This document shows, one piece after another, positions 1,246 through 58,518 of a stretch of DNA of 64,000 nt (position 1 is its first letter; every line of letters begins with the position of its first letter). This DNA comes from Thermoactinomyces sp. (lineage in GTDB: Bacteria > Bacillota > Bacilli > Thermoactinomycetales > Thermoactinomycetaceae). The notes beneath the pieces are model-generated. The model was not told the DNA's origin. It ran no database searches and worked only from the letters and a program-made list of their open reading frames with translations. The stretch is taken from positions 34,118 to 98,117 of the forward strand of contig JBAVDL010000074.1 in the NCBI GenBank assembly GCA_049587175.1. The letters are read 5' to 3'. A program made the position numbers and the translations under genes.

Positions 1246-1274
1246 TCATATTAAGAACAAGTCCACATATGAAT
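1246..1274 (+). promoter_or_regulatory. Candidate sigma-E type promoter for spoIIIA
   Basis: TCATATT (1246-1252), 13 nt spacer, then CATATGAAT (1266-1274). This resembles the mother-cell sigma-E consensus (ATA...CATACA-T) and sits about 35 nt upstream of spoIIIAA. Partial match only. Confidence 0.35.
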
Positions 1275-1308
1275 GGGAATAAAAAAGGTTCAGGACAGGA
1301 GGTGTTCC

Positions 1309-2283
1309 ATGTCAATCAAGCCGATTTTCCAGATACTTCCGCTTTCCATTCGTGATGTGATTCAATCATTGCCGGCTTCCGTTCTGGAACGCCTGGAAGA
1401 AGTTCGTGTCCGGCAGGGCAGACCGCTGGAAATCATTACATCCGAGCAGTCATGGTTTGTCAGCCGGTTTGCCCATCTTTCAAAAAAACCGTATGAAGCG
1501 ATGATTCCGAGCAAAGAGGATTGCCTCAATCTGTTAAATCTGGTCAGCAATCATTCATTGTATACGATGGATGAAGAATTGCGGCAAGGCTATGTTACTG
1601 TCGAAGGCGGGCACCGAGTCGGTCTGGTTGGAAAAGTGGTGGTAGAGGGCGGAAAGGTAAAGCATCTTCGGGAGATTACAGGTTTTAATGTGCGAATTGC
1701 CCGGCAGGTTGTCGGAGTTGCCGATCCATTGATTCCATACCTGTTTGGGCAGTCCAGAGTGGAAAATGTATTGATTGTTTCTCCCCCCCAATGCGGAAAA
1801 ACCACTTTAATCCGGGATCTGGCACGTCATGTCAGTATGGGGAGCCAAAGCATTCCTGCTCACAAGGTTGGAATTGTCGATGAGAGATCCGAAATTGCCG
1901 GCTGTGTGGCAGGCGTTCCCCAACATGATGTGGGGCCCCGAACCGATATATTGGACGGTTGTCCCAAGGCTGAAGGAATGATGATGCTGATCCGTTCCAT
2001 GTCCCCGGATGTTCTGGTTGTTGATGAGATAGGGCGAAAGGCCGACAGTGAAGCGATTCATGAAGCCATTTACGCGGGAGTTCATCTGTTTGCTACCGTA
2101 CACGGCCAGTCCATCAAGGAAATTACACGACGGCCGGTACTGCGGGAACTGCTTCAGGAAAAGGTGTTTACCAGGCTGGTATTGCTCAGCCGAAGAAAGG
2201 GACCTGGAACGGTCGAGGGAATTTACAACCAGTTTATTGAGCGCCTGGACAACAGGATTGGAAAGATGGGAAGTATATGTTGA
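1309..2283 (+). CDS. spoIIIAA: Stage III sporulation protein AA (ATPase)
   Basis: ATG at 1309 follows SD aggagg; the track ORF starts earlier at 1273. Walker A motif SPPQCGKTT. First gene of an eight-gene spoIIIA-ordered cluster. Confidence 0.9.
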   Translation: MSIKPIFQILPLSIRDVIQSLPASVLERLEEVRVRQGRPLEIITSEQSWFVSRFAHLSKKPYEAMIPSKEDCLNLLNLVSNHSLYTMDEELRQGYVTVEGGHRVGLVGKVVVEGGKVKHLREITGFNVRIARQVVGVADPLIPYLFGQSRVENVLIVSPPQCGKTTLIRDLARHVSMGSQSIPAHKVGIVDERSEIAGCVAGVPQHDVGPRTDILDGCPKAEGMMMLIRSMSPDVLVVDEIGRKADSEAIHEAIYAGVHLFATVHGQSIKEITRRPVLRELLQEKVFTRLVLLSRRKGPGTVEGIYNQFIERLDNRIGKMGSIC

Positions 2284-2795
2284 AGCTGTTGGGAGCCGTT
2301 CTTGTCATCTTGACAACCTCATGGATCGGTTTTCAACTGGCTGCGGAACTTCGTTTGCGTACGCGGCAAATTCAGGAATTGCGTTCCAGTTTGGCGCTGT
2401 TAAAAACAGAGATCGATTATGGTACAAGGCCGCTTGCAGAAGCATGGGAACGGATTGCAGAGGTTGCAGACAGTGACCTGAGGCGGTTGTTTCGCCGTTT
2501 TGGGAGGAATTTGAGAACGATGAATGGCCAGTCAACTTATGAATGTTTACGGTTGGCTATTGACAGCGAGTGGCAAAAAACAGCCATGGGAAAGGATGAA
2601 AAAGGAATCCTCCTCAAATTATGCCAGGTATTGGGAAGCTCCAACCGTTCCGATCAACTGCACCATTTGGAAATAGTCGCTGAAAATTTGCTGATGGAGG
2701 AACAGAAAGCCAGGGAAGAACAGGAAAAATATGAAAAAATGGTTAAAACGCTTGGGATTTTGTCAGGGGCGCTGCTGGTGATTCTGATGTATTAA
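2277..2795 (+). CDS. spoIIIAB: Stage III sporulation protein AB
   Basis: 172 aa with N- and C-terminal TM segments. Overlaps the spoIIIAA stop. Position in the operon fits. Confidence 0.85.
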   Translation: MLKLLGAVLVILTTSWIGFQLAAELRLRTRQIQELRSSLALLKTEIDYGTRPLAEAWERIAEVADSDLRRLFRRFGRNLRTMNGQSTYECLRLAIDSEWQKTAMGKDEKGILLKLCQVLGSSNRSDQLHHLEIVAENLLMEEQKAREEQEKYEKMVKTLGILSGALLVILMY

Positions 2796-2819
2796 AACTT
2801 TTCATGGAGGGGTGGCTTT

Positions 2820-3026
2820 ATGCCATACCATTTGGATTCTGTTTTTCAGATTGCCGGGATCGGGATTATTGTAGCCATGATTCACACAGTGTTAAAGCAA
2901 ATGGGTAAAGAGGATTTTGCGCACTGGGTCACCTTGTTCGGTTTTGTTGTTGTTCTGTTTATGGTTGCCATGTTGCTGCAGGATCTGTTTCAGACGATTA
3001 AAAATGTATTCCTGTTCCGAACCTGA
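2820..3026 (+). CDS. spoIIIAC: Stage III sporulation protein AC
   Basis: 68-aa two-TM protein. ...VFQIAGIGIIVAMIHTVLKQMGKEDFAHWVTL... closely resembles B. subtilis SpoIIIAC as I recall it. Confidence 0.9.
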   Translation: MPYHLDSVFQIAGIGIIVAMIHTVLKQMGKEDFAHWVTLFGFVVVLFMVAMLLQDLFQTIKNVFLFRT

Positions 3027-3041
3027 CAGGGGGCGATCCGC

Positions 3042-3431
3042 TTGGAAATCATCCAGGTGGTGGGCCTTGGCCTGATCACTACATTTCTGATCCTTGCGGT
3101 AAAAGAACAAAATCCGGTATTTGCTTTTTCGTTGGCAATGTTTGTCGGGGTAGTCATTTTCATCTCTCTGGCCGGCAAAGTGGGGGAAGTGGTTGGGATT
3201 TTGCAAAATCTGGCACGGCTGGCGCGAGTCAATGAACTGTTTCTGGAAACCATCCTCAAAATTATCGGTATTGCTTATATTGCCGAATTTGGCGCTCAGG
3301 TTACCCGGGATGCCGGACAGGAAAGTATTGCAGCAAAGATTGAACTGGCGGGAAAAGTATTGATTATGGTAATGGCAATTCCAATTATTACAGTGATTAT
3401 CGAAACAATTGTGCAAATTCTGCCTGCGTAA
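3042..3431 (+). CDS. spoIIIAD: Stage III sporulation protein AD
   Basis: 129 aa. ETILKIIGIAYIAEFGAQ...IELAGKVLIMVMAIPI matches the conserved SpoIIIAD core. Confidence 0.9.
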   Translation: MEIIQVVGLGLITTFLILAVKEQNPVFAFSLAMFVGVVIFISLAGKVGEVVGILQNLARLARVNELFLETILKIIGIAYIAEFGAQVTRDAGQESIAAKIELAGKVLIMVMAIPIITVIIETIVQILPA

Positions 3432-3437
3432 GGATGT

Positions 3438-4628
3438 ATGGAAATGAGAAGAAAGTTTTTCCTTTGTATGATGTTTTTTTGCTTGTTTTGGATTCCTTTG
3501 GCAGCTGCGGAAGAAAGCGGGGAAAAGCCACCGGCAATCAATGAAGTGGTTCGTTCCCAGCTGGATCATTTGCAGACGCAGGAAGTGGAGAATTTTTGGC
3601 AACAGTTGTCCCAGGATTATGGACCATATTTGGGTGGGCAGAATTCACAGAATCTCTTCGACTGGATTCTCTCCGGAAAAGCGGAACTGAGCTTTAAACA
3701 TGTGTTGATGGGTTTGTTGAGATATTTTTTTCACGAAATTCTTTATAACGGGAAACTGTTGGGAAGTATCATCATCCTTACTGTTTTCAGCATGATCCTG
3801 CAAACACTGCAAACTGCTTTTGAACACAACCAGGTAAGCAAGGTAGCCTATGCTATTGTGTTTATGGTGCTCATTGTCCTGGCTATCAACAGTTTCCATG
3901 TAGCCGTCGATTCAGCCAGGTTGGCAATCGGACGCATGATTGGATTTATGATAGCTTTGATTCCTCTTATGCTGACTTTGATGGTTACAATGGGAAACGT
4001 TGTTTCTGTCACGCTTTTTCATCCCATGATCGTATTCATGATTCATGTTATTGGAACATTTATCTATACGGTTATTTTTCCGCTTCTTTTCTTTGCGGCC
4101 ATTTTAAGCATTGTAAGCAGCCTGACGGACAAATATAAAGTAAATCATCTGGCCGGATTGATGCAAAAAGTCGGGGTAACTTTACTGGGTGGACTGCTGG
4201 CCATTTTTTTGGGAGTAATCTCCATTCAGGGAGCAACCAGTGCGGTTGCAGACGGGGTAACGTTAAGAACAGCAAAGTATATTACGGGAAATTTTGTCCC
4301 GATCATTGGCAGAACCATTTCGGATGCGGCGGATACAGTGATGAATGCCTCTTTGCTGGTCAAAAACACGATTGGACTGGCTGGAGTTATCATACTTCTC
4401 CTGATATGTGCTTTTCCGGCATTGAAGATTTTATCTCTTGCCTTTATTTACAATTTTACGGCTGCCATCATGCAACCTTTGGGAAACAGCCCCATTATTG
4501 AAAGCCTGAATGCAATCGGGAAGACACTGATTTTTATATTTGCCGCACTGGCCGCTGTGGGACTGATGTTTTTTTTGGCTGTGACCATTCTGGTAACTGC
4601 CGGAAATATATCGGCAATGATCAGGTAG
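3438..4628 (+). CDS. spoIIIAE: Stage III sporulation protein AE
   Basis: 396 aa with a signal peptide followed by a polytopic membrane domain. Position in the operon fits. Confidence 0.85.
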   Translation: MEMRRKFFLCMMFFCLFWIPLAAAEESGEKPPAINEVVRSQLDHLQTQEVENFWQQLSQDYGPYLGGQNSQNLFDWILSGKAELSFKHVLMGLLRYFFHEILYNGKLLGSIIILTVFSMILQTLQTAFEHNQVSKVAYAIVFMVLIVLAINSFHVAVDSARLAIGRMIGFMIALIPLMLTLMVTMGNVVSVTLFHPMIVFMIHVIGTFIYTVIFPLLFFAAILSIVSSLTDKYKVNHLAGLMQKVGVTLLGGLLAIFLGVISIQGATSAVADGVTLRTAKYITGNFVPIIGRTISDAADTVMNASLLVKNTIGLAGVIILLLICAFPALKILSLAFIYNFTAAIMQPLGNSPIIESLNAIGKTLIFIFAALAAVGLMFFLAVTILVTAGNISAMIR

Positions 4629-5309
4629 GTGTTTGACATGGTCTCCTGGATGAGCGATTGGTTAAAACAGATTGTGCTGCTTGTACTGATTGCTACTTTT
4701 ATTGATTTGATTTTGCCAAACAGCCGGCTGGACCGATATGTGAAGCTGGTTATGGGACTTCTGATCATTATGGCCGTCCTGGGGCCGATCTTCCAATTGC
4801 TCTCAGATGACCTTGACTTGCGATCACTAGCTTTTCTCCCTTCCGTTCCGGCCTTTTCACAAATGGATTCGATGGAAGAAATTGAACAGAACAGCAAAAC
4901 ATTAAAGCAGGAACAACAGCAAATTGTACGGCAACAGGCAGAACTCAGGCTTGGCGAGGCAATAAAAACCGAATTGGAAAAACATTTTCCCGTTGAGGTT
5001 AAGAAAGCCGAGGTGAAATTGCAAATAAGCAGCAATGCCAGTGAAAATGAAGTAGAAAAAATACATGTTTCCCTGTTGCCTCAAAAATCGGAATCATCCC
5101 TTGGAATGAAACCGGTGGAGCCTGTTAACATTGATTGGAATTCGGAAAGTGCTCCGAATAAGGAAACAAAACCGGACCTAAAGTCGCTTGAACAGGATGT
5201 GATGCAATATATTGAAAAAAACTGGAATATACAGGTGGAGAAAGTTGATGTTGAGATCCATGCAGAGACTGAAACCTCTTTTATGGATCACCGGATTTAC
5301 CTGACGTAA
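4629..5309 (+). CDS. spoIIIAF: Stage III sporulation protein AF
   Basis: N-terminus WLKQIVLLVLIATFIDLILPN is typical of SpoIIIAF. Start is GTG 4629 or ATG 4638. Confidence 0.8.
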   Translation: MFDMVSWMSDWLKQIVLLVLIATFIDLILPNSRLDRYVKLVMGLLIIMAVLGPIFQLLSDDLDLRSLAFLPSVPAFSQMDSMEEIEQNSKTLKQEQQQIVRQQAELRLGEAIKTELEKHFPVEVKKAEVKLQISSNASENEVEKIHVSLLPQKSESSLGMKPVEPVNIDWNSESAPNKETKPDLKSLEQDVMQYIEKNWNIQVEKVDVEIHAETETSFMDHRIYLT

Positions 5310-5329
5310 ATGATGGGGGTGAACAAGGA

Positions 5330-5953
5330 ATGTTAAAAAAATTATGGCAAAAGTGGGAGCAGAAATGGGAAGGAGATGAGAAACAGAAAAAGCGGTTTGG
5401 ATGGATTCTGATTATGGGAGCGTCCGGCCTGGCGATTATGATTTTTTCCCAGTTTATACAGGTAAGAGAAGCTTCGTTGCCGCCAGGAAAGAATGAGTCT
5501 CCCGCTGCAGAAACAGAGGCAAAGCCGTTATCTTCTTCAAAGGAAGAGGATACCATGGTGCAATATGAACAGATGTACGAAGAAGAACTGGAAAAGGTGT
5601 TGAGCAAGATTGTCGGGGTTGATGATGTTTCCGTCATTGTCAATCTGGATTCCACAGTGGAAGAGGTTGTGCAAGTAGACAAGCGGGAGTCACGCCAGGT
5701 TACAACCGAGACAGACAAAAATGGCGGAAAGCGTTCAATCACCCAGGATACGGAAGATCAGAAAACTGCATACTATCGCAGTGAGAATGGAGAAAAACCA
5801 GTTGTGATCAAAAAATTGAAACCGGAAGTTCGGGGTGTGCTCGTAGTTGCTCGCGGGGTGGAAAATCTGAAGGTAAAAGCGGTTGTAATTGAGGCCGTTC
5901 AAAGAACGCTGGATGTACCGATGCACCGGATTTCCGTACTGCCAAAAGGATAA
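5330..5953 (+). CDS. spoIIIAG: Stage III sporulation protein AG
   Basis: 207 aa with one TM segment followed by a ring-forming-type soluble domain. Position in the operon fits. Confidence 0.8.
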   Translation: MLKKLWQKWEQKWEGDEKQKKRFGWILIMGASGLAIMIFSQFIQVREASLPPGKNESPAAETEAKPLSSSKEEDTMVQYEQMYEEELEKVLSKIVGVDDVSVIVNLDSTVEEVVQVDKRESRQVTTETDKNGGKRSITQDTEDQKTAYYRSENGEKPVVIKKLKPEVRGVLVVARGVENLKVKAVVIEAVQRTLDVPMHRISVLPKG

Positions 5954-9171: not shown

Positions 9172-9588
9172 ATGAGCAGAAGAAGTGTAAGAGAAAAAGT
9201 TATTCAAACTTTGTATGAATGTGAATTCCATACCGATCGGAAGCAGGAGGTAGTTATATCGCGCAACTCCCAACTGGGCGAAAGGGAACGGCCATTTTTC
9301 CTGCATTTGATCAATGGTGTGATGGAACATGTAACGCAATTGGATGATGCGATTCGTTCTTACCTGAAAAAAGGATGGTCCCTGGAAAGATTGTCAACCG
9401 TAGACAAAATGATTTTGCGACTGGCTGCCTTTGAGTTGCTGTATGAGCCGGATACTCCGCATGGTGCGGTGATCAATGAAGCGGTGGAACTGGCAAAGTC
9501 ATTTGGGGGGGAAGATTCCGGCCGTTTTGTTAACGGTGTTTTGGGAAAATTGGCGGAAAATCGTCAAACACACAGCAAAGAAATATAG
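9172..9588 (+). CDS. nusB: Transcription antitermination factor NusB
   Basis: MSRRSVREKVIQTLY...ERLSTVDKMILRLAAFELLY...AVINEAVELAK are NusB hallmarks. Confidence 0.9.
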   Translation: MSRRSVREKVIQTLYECEFHTDRKQEVVISRNSQLGERERPFFLHLINGVMEHVTQLDDAIRSYLKKGWSLERLSTVDKMILRLAAFELLYEPDTPHGAVINEAVELAKSFGGEDSGRFVNGVLGKLAENRQTHSKEI

Positions 9589-9671
9589 CTTGTCAAGGTG
9601 TACCCTATGGCTTAAGGGGCAGGATTTTTCCGGTCTCCTTTTCCGGATTTCTGAAAAAGGCATGTTTTTCA

Positions 9672-9699
9672 TTGATAAGTGGTAGTCTTTACATAGAAT
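9672..9699 (+). promoter_or_regulatory. Candidate sigma-A promoter for folD
   Basis: TTGATA (9672-9677), 16 nt spacer, TAGAAT (9694-9699). Confidence 0.3.
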
Positions 9700-9763
9700 A
9701 AAGAACCATATAAACTGAACAATGACTAGTCAATTAACCTTTAATGTTAAGGAAGTGAGTTTA

Positions 9764-10618
9764 TTGACTTATCAATTAATCAATGGAAAACAGATCGCAA
9801 AAGAAATCCGGATGGAACTGAAACAGGAAGTCGAACAACTGAAAAATAAAGGGTTACAACCGGGACTGGCTGTCATTCTGGTGGGGAACAATCCTGCTTC
9901 AGAAACTTATGTACGAGGAAAAATCCGCGCTTCGGAAGAAGTCGGAATCCACTCCCGATTAATTCGAATGAATGATACAATTGCGGAGGAGGAATTGCTG
10001 GCAAAGGTTCACGAATTAAATGGGGATCCGAATATTCATGGAATATTGGTACAATTGCCTCTTCCAGACCATATTGACCCGGATAAAGTAATCGAAGCCA
10101 TCTCCCCGGCCAAGGATGTAGACGGGTTTACACCGATTAACATGGGGAAACTGGTCATCGGCCAAAGAGGACTTTTGCCCTGTACGCCTTATGGGATCAT
10201 GCAGATGCTGGAACGTACGGGAATCCCGCTTGAGGGCAAACATGCTGTTGTAGTGGGCCGCAGCAACATTGTGGGCAAGCCGATGGCGCTCCTGTTGCAG
10301 CAGGCCAATGCAACCGTAACATGTTGCCACTCCCGGACGGTTGATTTACCGCATTATACAAGACAGGCGGACCTGATTATTGCTGCCGTAGGCAAACTTG
10401 GTCTGATTACGAAAGAGCATGTCAAACCGGGCGCCGTCGTGATCGATGTGGGGATGAACCGGAATGAGGCCGGCAAATTGGCAGGGGATGTCAAGTTTGA
10501 AGAAGTTGCCCCGTTGACATCTGCCATTACTCCTGTACCGGGCGGAGTGGGACCGATGACGATTGCCATGCTTATGAAAAATACAGTATCTGCTGCAAAG
10601 GCCATTTGGAAATGCTAG
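9764..10618 (+). CDS. folD: Bifunctional methylenetetrahydrofolate dehydrogenase/cyclohydrolase
   Basis: LINGKQIAKEIR...GRSNIVGKPMALLL...PGGVGPMTIAML. The TTG at 9764 after ggaagtgag gives a typical 284 aa. The track ORF starts at 9722. Confidence 0.9.
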   Translation: MTYQLINGKQIAKEIRMELKQEVEQLKNKGLQPGLAVILVGNNPASETYVRGKIRASEEVGIHSRLIRMNDTIAEEELLAKVHELNGDPNIHGILVQLPLPDHIDPDKVIEAISPAKDVDGFTPINMGKLVIGQRGLLPCTPYGIMQMLERTGIPLEGKHAVVVGRSNIVGKPMALLLQQANATVTCCHSRTVDLPHYTRQADLIIAAVGKLGLITKEHVKPGAVVIDVGMNRNEAGKLAGDVKFEEVAPLTSAITPVPGGVGPMTIAMLMKNTVSAAKAIWKC

Positions 10619-12325: not shown

Positions 12326-13222
12326 GTGCTATCGATTACATCATATATAAAGGAACAAGCAGAACGGGTTCACCAGGCACTGGATGAATACATGGAAAAG
12401 ATGGACAGCCTGCCTTCCGTTTTACGCGATTCGATGCGCTATTCTTTGCTGGCCGGGGGGAAAAGATTGCGGCCGGTATTGGTGCTTGCAACGGTTGAGT
12501 CTCTTGGAGGAAACCCCGCGAAAGCGTTGCCGTTTGCCTGTTCAGTAGAAATGATTCATACTTATTCACTGATCCATGATGATTTGCCAAGCATGGATGA
12601 CGATGACTACCGGAGAGGAAAGCCCACCAATCATAAGGTTTTTGGCGAGGCCCAGGCCATTTTGGCCGGTGACGCCCTGTTAACCGAAGCGTTTGGTTTG
12701 ATGGCTTCAGGCGCAAAAGAAATCTCCTTGCCAGGCGAAATTGCCCTGACCATTATTGAAGAAGGCGCACGGTGTGCAGGGGCCCGTGGTATGGTTGGGG
12801 GGCAGGTGGATGACCTGTTGAGCGAAAACAGGCTGATTGGCATAGATGAACTGGAAAGTATCCATAGACGAAAAACAAGCGATCTGATTGTTTTTTCCGT
12901 TCGCCTTGGAGCTTATTTGTGCCAGGCAAACCGGAATTTGCTGGAGGCCTTGACCCGATTTGCCTGCCAGCTTGGATTGGCCTTTCAGATCCAGGATGAT
13001 ATTCTTGATGTGACCAGTACCAGGGAAGTGATGGGAAAATCGGCCGGAAGCGATTTGAAACGGAACAAGGCGACTTACCCGGCCTTGATCGGTTTGGAAG
13101 CATCACAGAGAAAGTTGAAAGAAATTACAGATAATGCCAAACAGCAGATCATGAACAAGCCTGGTCTGCAATCCCGGAAGCTGCTGGAGATAGCCGATTA
13201 TCTGTTATCCCGCGACCATTAA
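12326..13222 (+). CDS. ispA: Farnesyl diphosphate synthase
   Basis: DDxxD motifs LIHDDLPSMDDDDYRRGKPT and FQIQDDILD. Confidence 0.9.
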   Translation: MLSITSYIKEQAERVHQALDEYMEKMDSLPSVLRDSMRYSLLAGGKRLRPVLVLATVESLGGNPAKALPFACSVEMIHTYSLIHDDLPSMDDDDYRRGKPTNHKVFGEAQAILAGDALLTEAFGLMASGAKEISLPGEIALTIIEEGARCAGARGMVGGQVDDLLSENRLIGIDELESIHRRKTSDLIVFSVRLGAYLCQANRNLLEALTRFACQLGLAFQIQDDILDVTSTREVMGKSAGSDLKRNKATYPALIGLEASQRKLKEITDNAKQQIMNKPGLQSRKLLEIADYLLSRDH

Positions 13223-13274
13223 GGGCAAAACATGCCAAAGAGAACACCATATGCTATAATAAAATATATTTTAC

Positions 13275-13895
13275 AAGAGTGGTGCAGTATTCTAGTCAGT
13301 CGGTCATTTCTGAAGGCGGGGCTAAAAATCCGCTAAAGGGCACATCGATGAAGTTTCTGGTGTTGGCTTGCGGCGCCCAGCTGCGGGCTGATGCTGGGAG
13401 TTAAGGATTAAGGGCGATCCGCAAGGGCATGCGGGCGTAGACCCTTTTTCCGTGGAGGCCCAAGTACGTTGCGGCAAGGACAGCCTTGAAGTGACGGCTT
13501 GGGGGATGAACCTGCATTCCGGGAGTCTCTGGGTGTAGCGTAGCCTGCCTTGAGTGATGGTGCGGGGATGCTTTTCCAAAGCTGAAAGCACTGTTGCAAA
13601 AGAGGCTAGGAAATGAACTTAGACTGTTGAGGAAATCTCCTAGACTGTTTGCAAGGGCAAAGCTGTCCAGGGATTAAAGTGCGGACTAAGTGGCAATCCA
13701 GTCCGGCGGATGGCGACACCGCCGGGAAAGGTTATAAAAGGAAACTGCCTGATTGGCAACGATCAGGATACCTTTCCGGGAAATCCTACTGGACCTTAAG
13801 CCGCAGAGTTTACCTGGACAGTTTCCACTCTTTCCTATGTGTTTTTTGGATGGTTTTACCGGAAAAATACATATAAGTCGTTATAAGAAACGATG
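13275..13895 (+). ncRNA. ole: OLE (ornate, large, extremophilic) RNA candidate; boundaries approximate
   Basis: About 620 nt of ORF-poor, visibly GC-richer sequence between ispA and a membrane-protein gene. Perfect nested helices: 13703-09/13719-25; 13725-32/13770-77 enclosing 13748-53/13762-67; 13376-81/13393-98. The context ispA-[RNA]-membrane protein-dxs-tlyA-nadK-argR-recN is the published OLE context. Confidence 0.7.
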
Positions 13896-13903
13896 AAAAT
13901 TTA

Positions 13904-13927
13904 CCGGTCCTTGAGACCGGCATTTTT
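13904..13927 (+). terminator. Terminator-like hairpin at the 3' side of the OLE candidate
   Basis: CCGGTC 13904-09 pairs with GACCGG 13915-20, followed by CATTTTT. The stem is short, so it could be a partial terminator or a 3'-end stabiliser. Confidence 0.4.
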
Positions 13928-13949
13928 CTGGGATGCCCTATAGCAAGGG

Positions 13950-14588
13950 ATGGATGAATGTATGTTTTCGTTACTCCGAAAATCATTGCGCTGGTCTGTT
14001 GGTATCGGGTTGATCACAGCCCTGATTGCCATGGTACTATCATTATCGTCAACAACCTTGATGAAAGATTTCTCCTGGCAGGGTGGAATGATTGTACTTT
14101 TTATCATTATTGGAATCGGGATCTTTTTTGATATGCTGGGGATTGCGGCGGCTGCAGCCAAAGAGCAGCCTTTTCATGCCATGGCCGCCAAAAAAATTCC
14201 CGGTTCGAAAGAGGCAATCGGGATTGTACGCCGGGCAGACCAGTTTTCCAACTTTTGTAATGATGTAGTAGGGGATATAAGCGGCGTAATAAGCGGAGCA
14301 GCTGCCCTGGTGGTGATTGCTTCCATTATGCGTTCTGCTCCTTCATGGCAGGAGATTGCATGGCTGGAGGATGGTTTGAATGTACTCCTGGTTTCTGTAA
14401 TTTCTGCCATAACCGTAGGAGGAAAAGCATTGGGAAAAAGTTTGTCCATTCATTTTGCTAATCAGATTGTTTTTCAGGTTGGTAGAATATTTTTCTTTAT
14501 TAATAAGAAATTTCATTTATCCATATTTCATGTAAATAAGAAAAGAAAGCGAAAGCGGGGCGGTTTTCGTGGACCTCGAGCAAATTAA
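13950..14588 (+). CDS. oapA: OLE-associated membrane protein A candidate
   Basis: 212 aa with about 4 TM helices and a basic tail (KKRKRKRGG). Lies immediately downstream of the RNA and overlaps the dxs GTG start by 20 nt. The position matches oapA. Start could also be 13962. Confidence 0.7.
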
Positions 14589-16464
14589 TTCACCGGCTGA
14601 TTTAAAGAGGTTGCCAGTAGAAGAACTTCCAAAACTGGCATCTGAAATTCGCCAGTTTCTCATTGAAAGTCTCTCAAAAACAGGAGGGCATCTGGCTTCC
14701 AACCTGGGAGTTGTTGAACTGACGATTGCCCTTCACTATTTGTTTGACAGTCCAAGAGACAAGATTTTGTGGGATGTGGGCCATCAGGCTTATGTGCATA
14801 AAATTTTGACAGGACGCCGGCACCTGTTTCCAACCTTGCGTCAATACAAGGGACTTTGCGGTTTTCCGAAAATGAGGGAGTCTGTGCATGATTGCTGGGA
14901 AACCGGGCATAGCAGTACTTCATTATCCGGAGCAATGGGAATGGTGGCGGCCCGCGATCTGAAAGGGGAAAATTTCAGGGTAATTCCTGTTATCGGAGAT
15001 GGGGCCCTAACCGGCGGAATGGCTCTGGAAGCCCTGAATCATATTGGAGAATCGCAAAGCAATATGATTGTGATATTAAATGATAATGAGATGTCGATCA
15101 GCCCCAATGTGGGCGCGCTTCATAATCATCTGGCTCGACTTCGCACGAACAAGAGCTACAACAAAATGAAAGAGGAAGTTCAATATCTTCTGAAAAAAAT
15201 CCCTACGGTTGGCGTACCGTTTGCCAAAACACTGGAAAGAATAAAAGACAGTCTCAAATATCTGGTTGTTTCCGGTGTCTTTTTTGAGACATTGGGATTT
15301 ACCTATCTAGGTCCCGTTGATGGCCACAACCTTCCTGATTTGATGGAAAGCTTGCGGCTGGCAGGAAAAACCCGGGGCCCTGTTCTGGTGCATGTCGTAA
15401 CCAGAAAAGGATATGGTTACAAGCCCGCGGAGAATGACTCTGTTATCTATCATGGGGTCGGGACATACAAGATTGAATCGGGGGCTTTCAAGAAAAAAGG
15501 AGGACCGCCTTCCTATCCGGCAGTCTTTGGCAAAACCATGGTCAGACTGGCTGAACAGGATGAGCGGATTGTAGCAATTACTCCGGCAATGTTAACCGGA
15601 TCAAAACTGGAACAGTTTAACGAGAAATTTCCTGACCGCTGTTTTGATGTAGGAATTGCTGAGCAACATGCTGTTACCTTTGCTGCCGGAATGGCCACCC
15701 AGGGGTATAAACCGGTGCTCTCGATTTACTCCACCTTTTTGCAGCGCGGCTATGATCAGCTGGTTCATGATGTTTCCAAGCAAAATCTGAATGTCGTGTT
15801 TGCTGTCGACCGTGCCGGATTTGTAGGTGAGGACGGCGAAACCCACCAGGGAATTTATGACATCAGTTTTATGCGGAGTCAGCCCAATATGGTTATCATG
15901 ATGCCGAAAGATGAGAATGAACTTCAGCATATGTTGTATACTGCTGTCCAATATAATGATGGACCGGTTGCAGTCCGCTATTCCAAAAGTGCCGGTATTG
16001 GCGTATCCATGGATGAAAATTTCAAGCTCTTGCCAATCGGCAAGTCTGAGACTGTCAAGGAAGGAAGAGACGCGGCCATTGTTGCATTTGGGAATATGGT
16101 GCCAATCGCACTTGAAGCTGCAGCCTCCCTGCAACGGAACGGACTGGATGTGCGTGTGATCAATGCCCGGTTTGCCAAGCCGTTGGATACGGAGATGCTT
16201 GATCAACTGGCGTTGGAGAAAATTCCTGTAGTCACGGTAGAGGAAGCTGCAATGGCCGGCGGTTTTGGCAGTGCCGTGCTGGAATATTACCAGGAAAAAG
16301 AAGTATTTGATCTTCCCGTCAAAATCATGGGGATTCCGGATATGTATGTGGAACATGGAACAATTGAGGAACAGAGGAGAGAAACAGGGTTAACTGTCGA
16401 AAACATTGCCGATACTGTAAACAGGCTCATTATGCAAAGAAAGCCGGAAAACATGAGGGCTTGA
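14569..16464 (+). CDS. dxs: 1-deoxy-D-xylulose-5-phosphate synthase
   Basis: 631 aa. Typical N-terminus ..[10 protein letters not shown].., TPP motif [15 protein letters not shown]. Confidence 0.95.
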
Positions 16465-17349: not shown

Positions 17350-17865
17350 GTGACCCGGCCGGGTGATACCCTTGTGCTTTTTCTGCTAATCGGAGTCATC
17401 TTTTATTTTGTTTTAAGGAAATTACCGTTGCCATACCGAAAAAAAGAAGATGAGAACAGCGAGATCAGAGGAGAAATTCCAAGTTTGTTGCGCAGCCACG
17501 GATATGAGGTAGTGGGCGCCAAGGAAAGAATTCCGTTTGAAATTGATTTTGCCGGACGAACCTATGAGAGCCGGCTTTTTATTGATTATATCGCTCGTCG
17601 GGACGATGAATGGTATATTGTGATTGTATCCAGGCAACGCAAGCCGGTTCGTGAATCCGGAGCAGGCTTGAGGGAGTATTTTCTTCCCTATTACCTGCTC
17701 TACCGCCCTGCTGCCATTTTATATGTGGATCGTGATCAGGGACTGATCAAGGAAATTGAATTTGACATTCCCGATGTTTCACTTGGAAAGAAACAAAACT
17801 GGACTTGGCTGATTTTTCTGGCGGTTGGATTGATCCTGCTGGTTGCTTTGATTTTAACATCATGA
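17350..17865 (+). CDS. Hypothetical protein with N- and C-terminal TM anchors
   Basis: Strong SD aaaggaggggg precedes GTG 17350. TM helices at both ends. The central domain (GYEVVG...FIDYIARRDDEWYIVIV) vaguely resembles a restriction-endonuclease-like fold but lacks a clear (D/E)xK. Confidence 0.55.
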   Translation: MTRPGDTLVLFLLIGVIFYFVLRKLPLPYRKKEDENSEIRGEIPSLLRSHGYEVVGAKERIPFEIDFAGRTYESRLFIDYIARRDDEWYIVIVSRQRKPVRESGAGLREYFLPYYLLYRPAAILYVDRDQGLIKEIEFDIPDVSLGKKQNWTWLIFLAVGLILLVALILTS

Positions 17866-21205: not shown

Positions 21206-22693
21206 GTGGTAAGATTGCAAAGACAAGGGAAGCAAAAATGGTTTGGTTTTCTCCTGGTGCTTCTCCTCATAATGGGAAGTACTACCAATGCTTTTCAACA
21301 GTTTACCCAGTTTCCACAGGAAATCCGGCTTTTTCAGGGTGAGTGGAAACAATTGCATTTGTCAATACCGGCTACTGCGGATGTGTCGGATCCCGGCATC
21401 CTGCACATAGACGGATCGGATCAGACGCAAAACCTGAAAAATCTTCGCCATTCCTTCACTTTATTTACCAAAACTGCAGGCAAGACCTGGCTTACAGTAA
21501 AATTGTTCGGTACCCTCCCGATTAAAAAAGTACAAATTCAGGTCTATCCCCGGTTAAAGGTTATTCCCGGCGGCCAATCCATAGGTGTCAAGCTGCACTC
21601 AAAAGGAGTGATTGTTGTCGGGCATCACCGTGTGCAAACGGGTGGTTACAAAGTAAAATCACCCGCCGAAACCGCAGATATACGTGTAGGGGATTACCTG
21701 ATTGAACTGAATGGCCAAGCGGTACGCCGGGTCCAGGATGTTTCCAATATTGTGGAAAAATCAGGAACGAAACCGATCCGTGTAACACTGCTGCGCGACG
21801 GGAAAAGGAAAATAACCACAATTCAGGCTGTGCGGGATGTAAAAGATCATTGTTACCGTCTGGGGTTGTACATTCGTGATTCAGCAGCCGGTGTGGGAAC
21901 TCTTACTTTTTTTGATCCAAAACAGCATGTTTATGGGGCATTGGGACATGTCGTTACCGATCTGGATACAGGTCACCCCATTTTGGTTGGAGATGGGAAA
22001 ATTGTCAAATCCAATGTGACATCGATCCAAAAAGGGGAATCGGGAGAACCGGGTGAAAAAAGAGCGATTTTCTTCCAGGAAAATCAGGTGTTAGGGAATA
22101 TCAAGCAGAATACCCCATTCGGGATTTTTGGCCAAATGGAAAAAGCACCGGATAACGGCAAATTTGACAAGCCTATCCCGATTGCTCTGGCGGAGCAGGT
22201 AAAAGAAGGGCCGGCCAAAATCCTGACAGTGGTTGAGGGACAGAAAGTGGAGGAATACGATATTGAAATTGTGCACGTCATCAAGCAAAAGTATCCGGCA
22301 ACCAAAGGCTTGATCATCCGAGTGACCGATCCGCGTTTATTAAAGAAAACAGGTGGTATTGTACAAGGAATGAGTGGAAGTCCGATTATCCAGGATGGCA
22401 AACTGATTGGCGCCGTTACCCATGTTTTTGTTAATGATCCAACTTCGGGATATGGAACATTTATTGAATGGATGTTGCAAGACGCAGGGGTTATTCAATC
22501 CACAGCGGCTACGAATGATCGTAGCCGCTTTTTTTACAGCCCGATTTTAGGAACTTGCCTTTTTAAGCGAACAACTGCTTTGCTCTTTCCAGTCGTTGTA
22601 AAAGGAAGCATTGATAAAAGCAAACAATGGGACAAACAACATATTGACAAACATTACTACCAGGGCGATCACGAGATAGCGGTCGGTGATTAA
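21206..22693 (+). CDS. spoIVB: SpoIVB peptidase (S55); the annotated 3' end is suspect
   Basis: Signal/TM segment, PDZ region, catalytic-serine motif GMSGSPII...THVFVNDP. Start is GTG 21206 or TTG 21215. The frame stays open through its own terminator hairpin to 22693 (see findings). Confidence 0.85.
   Translation: MVRLQRQGKQKWFGFLLVLLLIMGSTTNAFQQFTQFPQEIRLFQGEWKQLHLSIPATADVSDPGILHIDGSDQTQNLKNLRHSFTLFTKTAGKTWLTVKLFGTLPIKKVQIQVYPRLKVIPGGQSIGVKLHSKGVIVVGHHRVQTGGYKVKSPAETADIRVGDYLIELNGQAVRRVQDVSNIVEKSGTKPIRVTLLRDGKRKITTIQAVRDVKDHCYRLGLYIRDSAAGVGTLTFFDPKQHVYGALGHVVTDLDTGHPILVGDGKIVKSNVTSIQKGESGEPGEKRAIFFQENQVLGNIKQNTPFGIFGQMEKAPDNGKFDKPIPIALAEQVKEGPAKILTVVEGQKVEEYDIEIVHVIKQKYPATKGLIIRVTDPRLLKKTGGIVQGMSGSPIIQDGKLIGAVTHVFVNDPTSGYGTFIEWMLQDAGVIQSTAATNDRSRFFYSPILGTCLFKRTTALLFPVVVKGSIDKSKQWDKQHIDKHYYQGDHEIAVGD
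22504..22536 (+). terminator. Canonical intrinsic terminator lying inside the open spoIVB frame
   Basis: Perfect 10-bp stem AGCGGCTACG 22504-13 / CGTAGCCGCT 22520-29, 6-nt loop, then T7 (22530-36). Confidence 0.8.
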
Positions 22694-23262: not shown

Positions 23263-24090
23263 TTAACCTCTGGGGTTGCGGATTTTTTCGATCAATTTTT
23301 TTCGTGTTTGTTCTGTTGCTTTTTCTCTGGAAACATCAGCTTTAAATTTTTTATATTCAGCCAAGGTTGCCGAATCGGCGTTTAACCAACGATGAAATTT
23401 ATAAAGCCGCAAGTACAGAAACCATTTTTGCAAATCCGACAAAGGAATTGCTTTTCTTAATTTTTTTAGAAATTGTTTTCGTTCTTTTTTCGTTTCGATC
23501 TGTACTTCAAATTGTTTTTTCATAGTTTCCATCATTTGCAAGTGATTTTTGTCTACTTTTTTGAAATAATCTTTGGTCATAAGATAGTCGGTGGTTAATT
23601 CTCGATAAAGATCTTTTGCCTTTTCTACGATTTCTTTTAACTGATCTTGTGTTTCAAATATGACTTGTGGTATGGAACAAAATAACTCATATCCTTTTTT
23701 CAAATCTTTATCATCCGAAGCATGGACAAGTTCAGCAAATGACTCCAGAAGAGATTGTCCTTTCTTCCATATTTCCATTGGTCTTTGTGACCACTCTAAA
23801 CCATAAATAAATATATTTTCTAATTCTGCGTCTACAGTAGCGACGTAGTCTAGAATCTCAATAACGTTTTTGTGAATGGGGATATTTCCATTCTCATGGA
23901 TGATTAATATGCCGGTTAAATGATCTTCTCTGGGATAAAAACTGACATAATAGTATTTTTCATTATTGCATATGATTTTATGTGGAAATACATTATAGGT
24001 TTCTCCCTTTTTTACGTAAGAACGTGCTACCTTTTTGATCAATTCCGGCGGTTCAGGATTGGGATTAACTCTTAATTCTTCCAGGTTCAT
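23263..24090 (-). CDS. Hypothetical cytosolic protein, Lys/Glu-rich helical C-terminal half (second gene of the cassette)
   Basis: 275 aa with no TM segment. SD taggggg precedes the ATG, 17 nt after the upstream stop. Looks AT-rich by eye. I recognise no motif. Confidence 0.6.
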   Translation of the reverse strand: MNLEELRVNPNPEPPELIKKVARSYVKKGETYNVFPHKIICNNEKYYYVSFYPREDHLTGILIIHENGNIPIHKNVIEILDYVATVDAELENIFIYGLEWSQRPMEIWKKGQSLLESFAELVHASDDKDLKKGYELFCSIPQVIFETQDQLKEIVEKAKDLYRELTTDYLMTKDYFKKVDKNHLQMMETMKKQFEVQIETKKERKQFLKKLRKAIPLSDLQKWFLYLRLYKFHRWLNADSATLAEYKKFKADVSREKATEQTRKKLIEKIRNPRG

Positions 24091-24107: not shown

Positions 24108-25079
24108 TTAACCAAAAATTTTGTTCCAAGCTGATTTTACACCATTTATTGCTTTTTTAACTCCTTTTTTAATCCCCTCCCGATGGGTGTACAAAGCGCT
24201 TCCTGCCCACAATACCGTTCCTGCACCCATTAAAAAGACTCCCGGACCTGTGGGGCCCAATATTTGCCCTCCGGCAATCAGCATTTCGCCTACACTTCCA
24301 ACACCCTTGGCAATCGACTTATAGGCTTCATCAGAGTTATCAGCTTTAAAGGCATCCACAAAATTTTTGCCGGCATCAATGGCCGAGATCCCCAAACTGG
24401 CAAATCCCACTCCTTTGGCGAATTTGGTGACTGTTTTCAGGCTGCCAATCTTTTTCTGGATTTCGGCTTTCTGAAAGATTGATATTGTAGTCGATTCATT
24501 CATCCGTTGCAGCGTATTAATTTCTCTCAAAGTTTTATATTTGTTCCAGGCATCCAATGTTTTTTCTGCTCCGTCCCATGTATCGATTGCGATTTTTCCA
24601 ATGGAACCGTCCTGGAAATACAAGTTTCCCAACAGGGAGCGCGGCACTTTGACAAGAGAGGTATAAAGAATACCATTAGCATTGGGATTTTCCCATTGGC
24701 CGGTAATTATATCATAACGTGCTTCATTGTAGATATTGGGTTCAATGGCAGCGGCGGTGTCTGTTACAACATCCTTGGACATGAATTTCAATACATCCCA
24801 AATGCCCGGCCCGTCATCTTCCTTTGTCTCCTGTTTTGCGGGCTGTTTTTGATCTTTTGCTTGTATCTGTGTATTTGTACCATTTATTGGTTGATGCGGT
24901 TTTGGTTTCTCTCCTTCCTTTGGCTGATAGAAATCCTCGTTAATGGGAGGAGCATTGAAACTTCCTTCTCCTTCTGCAAAAACAACAAAGCCGGGTCCAA
25001 AGGAAATGCTTATGCTGACCAAAGCGATCAGAAAACCCATCATCCAGCGATAAATCGATTTTCTATTCATGCGCGTCAT
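24108..25079 (-). CDS. Secreted or anchored protein with Pro/Lys/Gln linker and C-terminal glycine-zipper-like hydrophobic region (first gene of the cassette)
   Basis: 323 aa. N-terminus MNRKSIYRWMMGFLIALVSISISFGPGFVVFAEG looks like a signal peptide. C-terminus GVGFASLGISAIDAG...GVGSVGEMLIAGGQILGPTGPGVFLMGAGTVLWAGSALY. No clear SD at either candidate start. Confidence 0.55.
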   Translation of the reverse strand: MTRMNRKSIYRWMMGFLIALVSISISFGPGFVVFAEGEGSFNAPPINEDFYQPKEGEKPKPHQPINGTNTQIQAKDQKQPAKQETKEDDGPGIWDVLKFMSKDVVTDTAAAIEPNIYNEARYDIITGQWENPNANGILYTSLVKVPRSLLGNLYFQDGSIGKIAIDTWDGAEKTLDAWNKYKTLREINTLQRMNESTTISIFQKAEIQKKIGSLKTVTKFAKGVGFASLGISAIDAGKNFVDAFKADNSDEAYKSIAKGVGSVGEMLIAGGQILGPTGPGVFLMGAGTVLWAGSALYTHREGIKKGVKKAINGVKSAWNKIFG

Positions 25080-27774: not shown

Positions 27775-28569
27775 TTGAACAAGATTCGTGTCATATTGGC
27801 TGATGATAATCGGGAATTTGCCGATTTGTTAAAAGAACATTTGACAAATCAGGGCGATATTGAAGTGATTGGTGTGGCCCACCACGGGGGTGAAGTGATC
27901 GACCTGTTAAAGAAAGAAATTCCGGATGTTCTTGTACTTGATATCATTATGCCTCATCTGGACGGACTTGGCGTATTGGAACAAATTCATCAAATGGATC
28001 TGGAAGTTTTGCCAAAAGTAATCATGCTGACAGCCTTTGGACAGGAAAATATTACCCATCGGGCGGTAGAACTGGGAGCGTCATATTATATATTGAAGCC
28101 TTTTGATTTGGATGTGCTTACACATCGAATCCGGCAGATGAAGGGAATTTCCTCGAAGCCCGCGTTTATAAAAACGGGTGCTTCCACAGCTGTTTCCTCA
28201 GCCGGACAGAAAACAAACAATCTGGATGCCAATATTACCAATGTGATCCATGAAATTGGAGTTCCCGCCCATATCAAAGGCTATCTGTACCTGCGTGAAG
28301 CAATATCCATGGTTTATAACGAAGTGGATTTGCTGGGTGCGATCACCAAATCGTTGTATCCCCGGATTGCGGCCAAGTATAACACAACTCCCAGCCGGGT
28401 TGAACGGGCCATCCGTCATGCGATTGAGGTAGCATGGAACCGCGGGAACATGGATTCCATCCGTAATCTGTTTGGTTACACAATCAACGTGACAAAAGCA
28501 AAACCGACAAACAGCGAATTTATTGCCATGGTTGCGGACAAATTGCGAATTGAACATAAAGTCGTATAA
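27775..28569 (+). CDS. spo0A: Sporulation master regulator Spo0A
   Basis: Receiver domain (ILADDN...[10 protein letters not shown]) and the hallmark effector helix [19 protein letters not shown] start sits 8 nt after AGGAGG. Confidence 0.95.
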
Positions 28570-48119: not shown

Positions 48120-48884
48120 TCAGGATATTAACAAATTTTTGCAAGCTTTGAGCAGTTTTTCCCCGTAAGCTTGACGCAACGGCTTATGTTCATTTTTGTC
48201 GAGGCTTTTATCAATCGTGCTGATGATCGCCAATACAGCGCGTACTTTCAGATCAATGCCAGATACGGTTTCCTGGTCTCCCTGGATCAGCAATCGGCAA
48301 TTTTGATTTTCATCTTCAATAAAGGTGCCTTTTTTGACGGAAAGATACTGATCTTTGGCTGCCATGGTTTCTTCGGCGATCCGGTAAGCTTCTTCCATGA
48401 GATCAAACAGGAACAAATCGGAGGGGGAACTGTCAGTCTCCAGCTCTTTCCGAAGTCTTTGCAATTCTTTCATGCGATGCTGCAAATACCGGTTTTCCAG
48501 ATTGTATATTGCCTCGACCGGAGTGGTTGTGTGACTTTTTTTTGCGGGAAATGGTTGTGTTGCTTCAATGGCTTTGATCTTGTACATCGTGTGAAACTGA
48601 AGATTTTTCCCTGTATTAGTTGAGCCAATACTGGACAATTCAATCAAATCCTTTTCCACAAGACGTGTCAAGGCTCGCCGGATGGTGGAACGGGTCAAAT
48701 CCAGATATTTTTCCAGCTTTTTGTAGGAAATAATCGCAGATCCCCTGGGAAGCGGGATACCGGTATTTTCATCAATCGTATCTTCATTGGATGCCAGACG
48801 AACCAGTTCAAAATAGGTTTGCCGTTCCCGTGGAGTCAGGCTGTTTAATTTGGCTTGATAGAGAAGATGTTCGCTTTGTTTCAT
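48120..48884 (-). CDS. Winged-HTH-like N-terminal domain protein with coiled-coil C-terminus, unknown function
   Basis: ATG at 48884 follows aaaggag. ISYKKLEKYLDLTRSTIRRALTRLVEKDLIEL is wHTH-like. Lies 21 nt upstream of the EcsC-like gene. Confidence 0.5.
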   Translation of the reverse strand: MKQSEHLLYQAKLNSLTPRERQTYFELVRLASNEDTIDENTGIPLPRGSAIISYKKLEKYLDLTRSTIRRALTRLVEKDLIELSSIGSTNTGKNLQFHTMYKIKAIEATQPFPAKKSHTTTPVEAIYNLENRYLQHRMKELQRLRKELETDSSPSDLFLFDLMEEAYRIAEETMAAKDQYLSVKKGTFIEDENQNCRLLIQGDQETVSGIDLKVRAVLAIISTIDKSLDKNEHKPLRQAYGEKLLKACKNLLIS

Positions 48885-49622
48885 AAACGTGCTCCTTTCT
48901 GCAAACAACTTCTAAGGCAGCATTCTTATTTTATAATAAAATTTATAACATGTATTAAGTATAGATTGAATTCTAACGAATTTTCTATTATAAATGCCGG
49001 CTAAACTTCTTTGCTGAAAGTATTATCAGGGAAAACTTGTTTGCATACTCCATATTGAAAAAGCTTGATATCATCCTCACGCTGCTCCAAACATGTTTCA
49101 GGGTGTTTCCTCCCCGTTTTGTTCCCGTTTCATTAATAGAAAGTTTCACCCGCAACCGTTAACGCCCGCCCCGAATAAAATCCTCACATCCAATTTTCCA
49201 CTGGTCAGGCTGCCCCTGACAGGGCCGGTTTCATTTGTTTCGGTCATCACTGTCGGAAGCCGCTCCGCTTCTTGAAATCGTCTTTATTTATATGTTTTCT
49301 CCAGTCTCAAGCCGGGTTGCCCCGACTCTGTTTTTAGAGGAAGAAGCCTGATCATTTTCAAATGGCGGAGGGTTTCCTTCCAAAAAGGTGCAGGAAGGGG
49401 CAGGACTTGAAATGACTCGATCGGAAGTATTTGGATTTTAAAATTTATAAAATTAATATATGCTTTTATTTATAAATATAGTTGTACAATCCAGTCGACC
49501 CAATAGATTAAATCGTATATCGAAAATATCTGTACAACAATCAAATATCAGTAGTTATTTTCAGATTATAAAAATTGTAATAAGTCATTTATTTTTTTCA
49601 TAACGTTCAACGGGCTTCCATA

Positions 49623-58443: not shown

Positions 58444-58518
58444 AACCCGGAATTGCTTTCCGTATATTTTTTCCTTGTCCCACATAGTTTCATAGTGATG
58501 GACAAGGAGGCAGAAAAC

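Follow-up and report, generated by a model that had tools for sequence, protein, structure and literature searches.

A full-length OLE RNA gene with a shortened P9 and its oapA partner in a Thermoactinomycetaceae-related spore-former

Introduction

OLE is among the largest and best conserved bacterial RNAs of unsettled biochemical function, and about 2,800 members of the class (RF01071) are known (PMC11332333). Characteristic of the class are a length of about 600 nt, high transcript abundance and stability, location at the membrane and near-invariance of about 25% of the nucleotides among species. In this study, we analyzed a 64,000-nt stretch of DNA from contig JBAVDL010000074.1 (assembly GCA_049587175.1, Thermoactinomyces sp.), which is called the window below; position 1 is its first letter. 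The subject is the region between ispA and dxs, where an initial annotation, made from the letters of the window, had placed an OLE RNA and its membrane partner OapA. The locus contains ispA, a promoter, the OLE RNA gene (ole), a spacer with a terminator-like hairpin, oapA and dxs, and all of these lie on the + strand (Table 1).

Results

Identification of the OLE RNA gene between ispA and oapA

The ispA stop codon (13222) and the next real coding sequence start (13950) were separated by 727 nt, which agrees with the gap of about 700 nt in the initial annotation. The + strand of this gap contained 9-14 stop codons per frame, and the open reading frames (ORFs) in it were solely mechanical ones of 41-89 aa, so the annotation was right in seeing no credible ORF there. 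The GC content was 0.492 in the gap and 0.517 in its OLE part, compared with 0.448 in the window and 0.33-0.43 in five neighbouring spacers; the spacer had indeed been described as GC-richer than others.

The scan of the whole 64-kb window with Rfam 15 returned a single hit, RF01071, in this gap. The match scored 514.1 bits (gathering score 50) with an E-value of 6.8e-148, covered positions 1-616 of the 616-position model and was not truncated. This full-length match to the covariance model confirmed the OLE-class RNA. When the Rfam consensus structure was projected from the cmscan alignment onto the window, 135 of the 144 consensus pairs were canonical and nine were non-canonical. In addition, 13276-82 formed seven perfect pairs with 13825-31. 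This is the closing stem P1, which is absent from the annotation of the Rfam structure line, and its span places the functional RNA at about 13268-13835.

To compare the gene with its relatives, 80 genomic loci with relatives of the downstream protein were fetched, and 20 of them were scanned with Rfam. In all 20 scanned loci, a full-length OLE ended a short way before the homologue and had the same orientation. Their scores were 457-547 bits, and the 514 bits of the window OLE fall inside this range of 20 other species. The invariant 3' motif of OLE was present upstream of the homologue in 77 of the 80 loci.

For the covariation analysis, 21 OLE sequences were aligned by MAFFT without structural information and scored against the Rfam structure together with P1. 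Paired cells made up 90% of this alignment, compared with 40-47% when the partners were slid by 1-3 columns. Changes on both sides were found in 101 of 151 pairs, and none of 500 shuffles reached the observed covariation values. Among the 20 other OLE RNAs, 219 columns are invariant. The window agreed with 217 of them, and the two mismatched columns are both sides of one pair (13725/13777), which is changed from A-U to G-C.

The nearest relative was L081, a Logan contig of 14 kb (SRR32539174) whose gene order is identical. The identity between the window and L081 was 91.5% in the ispA-oapA gap and about 94% in the OLE part, while it was 84.5-89.5% in the flanking coding sequences. Compensatory changes between the two sequences were found at 13461/13501, 13665/13819, 13667/13817 and 13725/13777. 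The higher identity and the compensatory changes indicate that the OLE RNA is under stronger, structure-directed purifying selection than the flanking coding sequences.

Table 1. Coordinates of the features at the ole-oapA locus (positions in the window).
Feature	Position	Strand	Properties
ispA (farnesyl diphosphate synthase)	12326..13222	+	Pfam PF00348, NCBIfam NF045485, 385 bits
Proximal ole promoter	13232..13260	+	-35-like ATGCCA 13232-37, 17-nt spacer, extended -10 TGcTATAAT (TG 13252-53, TATAAT 13255-60)
OLE RNA gene	13263..13844	+	Rfam covariance model; extent of the RF01071 match, 582 nt
A-rich-loop hairpin, probably P4	13315..13334	+	consensus helix; conserved loop CUAAAAAU; 99% of cells paired
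20-bp consensus hairpin	13354..13400	+	GCCCA loop 13375-79 conserved; 97% of cells paired, 12 pairs with double changes
P9, strongly shortened	13547..13606	+	local end in cmscan alignment: 2 nt in place of 41 consensus positions
P13, predicted primary OapB site	13703..13725	+	GCGA (GNRA) tetraloop 13713-16; 95% of cells paired, 7 pairs with double changes
P14	13725-32/13770-77	+	consensus helix, encloses P14.1
P14.1	13747-55/13760-68	+	GCAA tetraloop; core 13748-53/13762-67
ole-oapA spacer	13845..13949	+	105 nt, unusually long; conserved block ACCGGRRAAAWTACATA at 13858-13873
Terminator-like hairpin	13904..13929	+	CCGGUC-CUUGA-GACCGG, about -8.9 kcal/mol, then CAUUUUUCU
oapA	13950..14588	+	212 aa from 13950; 208 aa from ATG 13962
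dxs	14569..16464	+	TIGR00204, 913 bits; start overlaps oapA end by 20 nt

Stems and predicted protein-binding sites of the OLE RNA

The names of the stems follow the paper on the crystal structure of OapB-OLE (PMC7936274). The hairpin at 13315-13334 is probably P4, a name based on its loop sequence. In models from cryo-electron microscopy (cryo-EM), the loop L4 of this stem forms an A-A bridge of the OLE dimer (PMC12265935, PMC12286853). In P13, pairing of G13709 with C13719, the register of the initial annotation, leaves A13710 as a single bulge two positions ahead of the loop. The combination of a GNRA loop and a bulge two nucleotides before it is the specificity determinant of OapB (PMC7936274). 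The basal pair of P14 was G13725-C13777 in the window and A-U in all 20 other OLEs aligned as well as in L081. Judged from the alignment, 13725/13777 is a private compensatory double substitution, and it adjoins the four-way junction bound by OapB. Furthermore, the J4a/5-P5 region (13335-13353) and its 3' partner region matched columns without variation among the 21 OLEs.

The initial annotation had listed four helices. All of them are perfect inverted repeats at the positions given, and three correspond to real stems of the RNA, namely P13, P14 and P14.1 (its core). The fourth (13376-81 with 13393-98) lies outside the consensus and was rejected as an OLE stem. In the consensus, 13354-74 pairs with 13380-400 around GCCCA, which is backed by covariation, and the annotated helix is an alternative register of it.

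OapA is encoded directly downstream

As annotated, the ORF at 13950-14588 encodes a multi-transmembrane protein of 212 aa and overlaps dxs by 20 nt. Four hydrophobic segments were found in it, at residues 12-39, 40-71, 105-131 and 136-161. The Shine-Dalgarno-like AAGGGA abuts the first ATG (13950) and its spacing is better for 13962; since most homologues also begin at the residue aligned with M5, oapA probably starts at ATG 13962.

The ORF had 2,960 homologues, which are labelled at the source as "CNNM transmembrane domain-containing protein" or "CBS domain containing-hemolysin-like protein", and several close ones carry weak precomputed PF01595 hits. The closest named homologues belong to the Thermoactinomycetaceae (Lihuaxuella, Laceyella, Paenactinomyces, Thermoflavimicrobium and Staphylospora) and showed 62-66% identity. 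The DxxxD motif, D105-V-V-G-D109, was invariant in 26 aligned homologues. The last 30 residues contain 11 K/R and no D/E, and this tail is conserved in the homologues; the loop between transmembrane segments 2 and 3 is also rich in K/R. The AlphaFold model of the protein was all-helical with a pLDDT of 77.5. The top four PDB hits of this model in Foldseek were to MtCorB, an archaeal CNNM protein (7m1t/7m1u; probability 0.96-1.00), and the remaining hits were noise.

The published features of OapA are four transmembrane helices, DxxxD, a positive cluster on the cytoplasmic side and a distant likeness to CNNM/CorB (PMC11332333, PMC12265935). Among them, DxxxD was named as distinctive for OapA (PMC11332333), and the structural match reported for the OapA of Halalkalibacterium (Bacillus) halodurans is the same MtCorB entry (Fernando and Breaker, PMC11332333). 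Cooperative binding of OapA to the OLE RNA in dimeric form, and the need for OapA in membrane localisation, were shown in H. halodurans alone (PMC12265935). The ORF at 13950-14588 thus shows all published hallmarks of OapA, its basic cytoplasmic face being a predicted one. The identification as the OapA partner holds, as OLE lies directly upstream in all 20 scanned homologous loci and DxxxD, the four transmembrane segments and MtCorB as the only PDB match are present. Together with the RF01071 match, these properties of an OLE-linked protein family uphold the annotation of an OLE ribonucleoprotein locus.

A different situation was seen in L054 (Thermoactinomyces daqus), at about 2990-3080 of that locus. 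The OapA match there begins no earlier than residue 30 of the query, and the stretch that follows the hairpin is unlike that of other relatives. Either the N-terminus of OapA has diverged in L054 or it is disrupted in this assembly.

P9 is shortened in the window and its family

The length of the P9 interior was measured in 79 OLEs with two invariant anchors as its boundaries. It was 38 nt in the window and in L081, which is the shortest of the 79, and 44-57 nt in six other Thermoactinomycetaceae. Outside the family (71 OLEs), the median was 80 nt with a range of 53-86 nt, and GGCC was present in 69 of the 71. The apical hairpin of P9 in the window is GCUUU-UCC-AAAGC with UCC as its loop, and AGCU is found solely in the P9 stem.

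The palindrome of L9.3 (GGCC, covarying with GAUC or AGCU) is an intermolecular kissing loop that forms bridge B3 of the OLE dimer (PMC12286853, PMC12265935). With the apical hairpin given above, the window OLE is unable to form this kissing loop. The shortening of P9 is old and stable, since it is common to seven other genomes of the family. Moreover, members of the class can do without the L9.3 feature, as P7-P9 are reduced or missing in variants already described (PMC11332333).

Two Bacillaceae OLEs (L032 and L049) were also without GGCC. Their P9 interior was 53-62 nt, and its tip carries UGUAUACA, which may be a further variant of the L9.3 palindrome beyond the published GGCC, GAUC and AGCU.

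Promoter and transcription of ole

In the promoter scan of 12900-14700, the ole promoter was the single promoter-like site on the + strand, and from its position the start site of ole would lie near 13267-13269. The extended -10 was kept in all seven Thermoactinomycetaceae loci. In 76 of 77 loci, the conserved 5' anchor was preceded at 15-35 nt by a TATAAT-like box, which was TG-extended in 63. The site agrees with the proximal promoter demonstrated by experiment for the OLE of B. halodurans; the 5' ends there lie close to where P1 begins (PMC3413148).

The terminator scan found no terminator-like site between the ispA stop and the ole promoter. Read-through from the upstream genes into ole is therefore likely. 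Such read-through was reported for B. halodurans, in which the cluster is co-transcribed (PMC12265935). The scan of 12900-14700 also gave no promoter-like site within oapA upstream of dxs. A candidate oapA promoter in the spacer, TTGGAT-16-TACATA, was picked by eye and rejected; it is poor and not conserved, and the scan found none but the ole promoter.

The ole-oapA spacer carries a conserved hairpin

The spacer was at least 78 nt in all seven Thermoactinomycetaceae, and its median over 77 loci was about 38 nt, with the first position of the protein match taken as the end point. The ACCGGRRAAAWTACATA block (13858-73) was kept in the window, L081, Lihuaxuella, Laceyella and Thermoactinomyces. 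In the same five, the stem of the hairpin was identical and its loop differed. Two Marininema species had a far stronger hairpin at the equivalent place, with -28 to -30 kcal/mol, and outside the family a comparable hairpin in the spacer was found in about 4 of 70 loci.

In the window, 13859-68 can pair with the U-run to form a helix that encloses both hairpins, and the fold had a z-score of -2.3. This fold of the whole spacer was rejected, as the helix was not reproduced in Laceyella or Thermoactinomyces, and for that reason we claim no structured element in the spacer beyond the hairpin. A permissive Rfam scan of the spacer returned CRISPR-DR64 alone, at chance level (17 bits, E 0.71).

The simplest reading of the hairpin is that it would be an intrinsic terminator which closes the ole transcription unit. 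Such a terminator must be leaky, because the essential dxs lies downstream without a detectable promoter. A leaky terminator would in turn give a high ratio of RNA to protein. In B. halodurans, ethanol raised OLE about 7-fold and oapA mRNA modestly or barely (PMC3413148), and this response fits the reading of a high RNA-to-protein ratio.

Gene neighbourhood, host and relatives

The order of the genes in the window was spoIIIAA-AG, accB, accC, asp23, nusB, folD, xseA, xseB, ispA, ole, oapA, dxs and tlyA, followed by a 171-aa ORF, nadK, argR, recN and spoIVB, and then by spo0A and the bkd operon. This neighbourhood is the published OLE neighbourhood plus one extra ORF. The initial annotation had called the order exactly the published one; the order itself is correct, and the 171-aa ORF (17350-17865, + strand) between tlyA and nadK is the departure from it, being missing from the neighbourhood list quoted there. 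The product of this ORF has hydrophobic N- and C-terminal segments and gave no match in Pfam or NCBIfam, even at E-values up to 10. The nearest relative L081 has an ORF of equal size at the matching position (9400-9915).

Genes for oapB (ybzG), oapC (ybxF), rpsU and mpfA/CNNM were not found in a survey of the rest of the 64-kb window, whose remaining content is ordinary Bacillales core genes. Several ORFs of 211-520 aa were without a Pfam match at E-values up to 1e-5, at 23263-24090 (-), 24108-25079 (-), 48120-48908 (-), 49847-50482 (+) and 50719-52281 (+); these were chosen by a crude longest-ORF rule, and some may not be real genes.

The best identity to OapA among the 185,579 species representatives of GTDB (r232) was 62-64% (Lihuaxuella and Laceyella), and the nearest sequence, L081, was 85-90% identical to the window in coding DNA. 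The organism itself was absent from that GTDB set, and the window probably derives from an undescribed lineage of genus rank close to the Thermoactinomycetaceae. The Thermoactinomycetaceae, a Bacillota family in the order Bacillales, are aerobic, mostly thermophilic spore-formers. As the nearest relatives belong to this aerobic family, an anaerobic lifestyle, at which the initial annotation had hinted, is not indicated. Sporulation genes are dense in the window, with spoIIIAA, AB, AD, AE, AF, AG, spoIVB, spo0A and spoIIM at 1273-5953, 21206-22693, 27775-28569 and 58453-59172. This richness fits the published phylogenetic correlation of ole with sporulation genes (PMC11332333). No mention of OLE together with the Thermoactinomycetaceae was found in the literature searched.

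Discussion

A functional ole-oapA locus

We conclude that the region between ispA and dxs is a functional ole-oapA locus, with a probability of about 95%. The class is already described, and the locus is an ordinary further example of OLE-OapA. With about 2,800 examples catalogued, one more brings the function of OLE no closer.

The locus would work as follows. The OLE RNA would be made from its own extended -10 promoter, as the conservation of this site suggests, and read-through from nusB-to-ispA probably contributes. The RNA has the canonical ornate structure closed by P1, a fold shown by the covariance model and the covariation, in a compact version from which the P9 arch and the dimerising kissing loop have been lost. 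The P13 GNRA loop with its bulge would recruit OapB, and the invariant J4a/5-P5 region is predicted to form a k-turn that binds OapC. By analogy with H. halodurans, OapA, a four-helix CNNM-like protein with DxxxD and a basic tail, would anchor the RNA at the membrane or across it, probably as a dimer. The work on H. halodurans and Clostridium suggests that the particle may support growth in the cold, at excess Mg2+, on poor carbon sources and in the presence of short-chain alcohols; again by analogy, it would most probably act by modulating divalent-cation handling at the membrane, plausibly through the CNNM-like OapA, and stress signalling (PMC12265935, PMC11332333, PMC9723947, PMC7936274). 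A weak intrinsic terminator about 60 nt past the RNA would end most ole transcripts, and partial read-through to oapA/dxs would set the ratio of RNA to protein.

Several observations weigh against this reading. The window OLE lacks the palindromic L9.3 loop, which makes one of the dimer bridges in the cryo-EM models. The OapA ORF had no sequence match in Pfam, NCBIfam or PDB, even at E-values up to 10, so the identity of OapA rests on the homologues, the linkage, the motifs and the fold. The similarity of the OapA model to MtCorB is itself weak (E-value 0.066-0.3, TM-score 0.39-0.49). The predicted folds of the remaining spacer differ between relatives, and the hairpin may not be a terminator, having a stem of 6 bp only and an interrupted U-run and being followed by an essential gene.

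The last point leads to another reading of the hairpin, in which 13904-13929 stabilises the 3' end of the OLE RNA or directs its processing, or else belongs to a 3' extension specific to the clade or to a regulatory leader of oapA-dxs, and ole-oapA-dxs is fully co-transcribed. The low stability of the stem (-8.9 kcal/mol) and the broken U-run suit this reading, as do the essential dxs without a detectable promoter of its own, the pairing of the second conserved block (13858-73) with the U-run in the window (z-score -2.3) and the co-transcription of the cluster in B. halodurans (PMC12265935). However, the enclosing helix was not reproduced in Laceyella or Thermoactinomyces. A conserved stem with a variable loop and a T-run, here in five species, is the classic signature of a terminator, and in Marininema the hairpin at the same place reaches -28 to -30 kcal/mol. 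Moreover, the ethanol response of OLE and oapA mRNA in B. halodurans (about 7-fold and barely any) shows that the two are partly uncoupled (PMC3413148). We consider full co-transcription with a non-terminating hairpin possible, at a chance well below even.

It is very improbable that the ole gene is a decaying remnant without a functional RNA. The P9 that is the shortest of 79 OLEs and has no dimerising palindrome, the nine non-canonical consensus pairs and the report of defective OLE genes in rare genomes would agree with decay. The end-to-end model match at 514 bits, within the range of 457-547 bits, speaks against it, and so do the 217 of 219 invariant columns kept, whose sole exception is a compensatory pair. 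The OLE is also more conserved than the flanking genes and differs from L081 by compensatory changes, and the shortening of P9 is common to seven other genomes of the family. Furthermore, oapA is intact here, while the reported defective genes sit in genomes without oapA (PMC11332333).

An ordinary cis-regulatory leader (riboswitch, T-box or attenuator) or small-protein genes such as the 89-aa ORF at 13322-13591 (-), to which the position of the gap upstream of a biosynthetic gene and the mechanical ORFs of 41-89 aa might point, can be dismissed as having next to no chance, because OLE was the sole Rfam family matched with only chance-level results in the spacer scan, the conservation lies in paired columns with compensatory changes and not in codons, and all three + frames are full of stops.

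Implications of the compact P9 and the spacer hairpin

The functional ole-oapA locus adds two modest points. In an entire family of free-living spore-formers, an OLE that looks functional is retained even though the long P9 arch and the dimerising loop are missing, and a terminator-like hairpin is conserved between the RNA gene and oapA/dxs across this family. The compact P9 bears on the current structural models, and the spacer hairpin on how the ratio of RNA to protein is set. Both features are testable in type strains such as Laceyella sacchari DSM 43356 and Lihuaxuella thermophila DSM 46701.

A further-reaching proposal, which we put forward tentatively and regard as rather doubtful, is that the Thermoactinomycetaceae, the host of the window included, carry a distinct compact OLE subtype. 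In this subtype the P9 arch and L9.3 (B3) would be dispensed with while the sites for OapA, OapB and OapC are kept, and ole would be an autonomous unit whose own promoter and leaky terminator set the OLE:OapA:Dxs ratio. If this were true, bridge B3 would not be needed for the function of OLE, and the subtype would be a natural minimal form with which structure and genetics could conveniently be studied in hosts that are aerobic and cultivable.

Comparison with known systems

The OLE/OapA of H. halodurans C-125 (RF01071) is the experimental model of the class. The window OLE has the same fold across the full length of the model and the same extended -10 in the proximal promoter, and oapA follows it directly in the same orientation. 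The neighbourhood nusB-folD-xseAB-ispA ... dxs-tlyA ... argR-recN is also shared, and so are the P13 GNRA loop with the single bulge for OapB and the invariant sequence of the predicted k-turn region. The OapA proteins have the same four transmembrane helices, DxxxD and basic cytoplasmic surface, which is a predicted one in the window. On the other hand, the identity of the window OLE to those of two sampled Halalkalibacter species was about 65%. The P9 interior is 38 nt without the GGCC kissing loop in the window, compared with about 80 nt in the OLE of the H. halodurans type. The spacer of 105 nt contains a hairpin, whereas that of the two Halalkalibacter species is about 15-19 nt and has none. 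The hosts differ in family as well, the window being Thermoactinomycetaceae-related.

The second related system is the CNNM/MpfA/CorB group of Mg2+ transporters (PF01595; MtCorB 7M1T/7M1U). The OapA model matches the transmembrane CNNM domain of MtCorB. In contrast to CNNM proteins, OapA has no CBS or CorC domains, has four transmembrane helices instead of three, and carries DxxxD, which is absent from CNNM (PMC11332333). The window OapA itself falls below every Pfam threshold, unlike several of its homologues, which have PF01595 hits.

The OLE "variant 1" of TANB77 and other clades (Fernando and Breaker, 2024, PMC11332333) has a shortened P7-P9, and P9 is shortened in the window OLE too. In variant 1, the nucleotides of the P13 tip that bind OapB are often missing, whereas the window OLE keeps the GNRA loop and the bulge. 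The window OLE scores within the range of the full-length representatives. Finally, the host of variant 1 is a gut symbiont with a reduced genome, while the host of the window OLE is a free-living spore-former.

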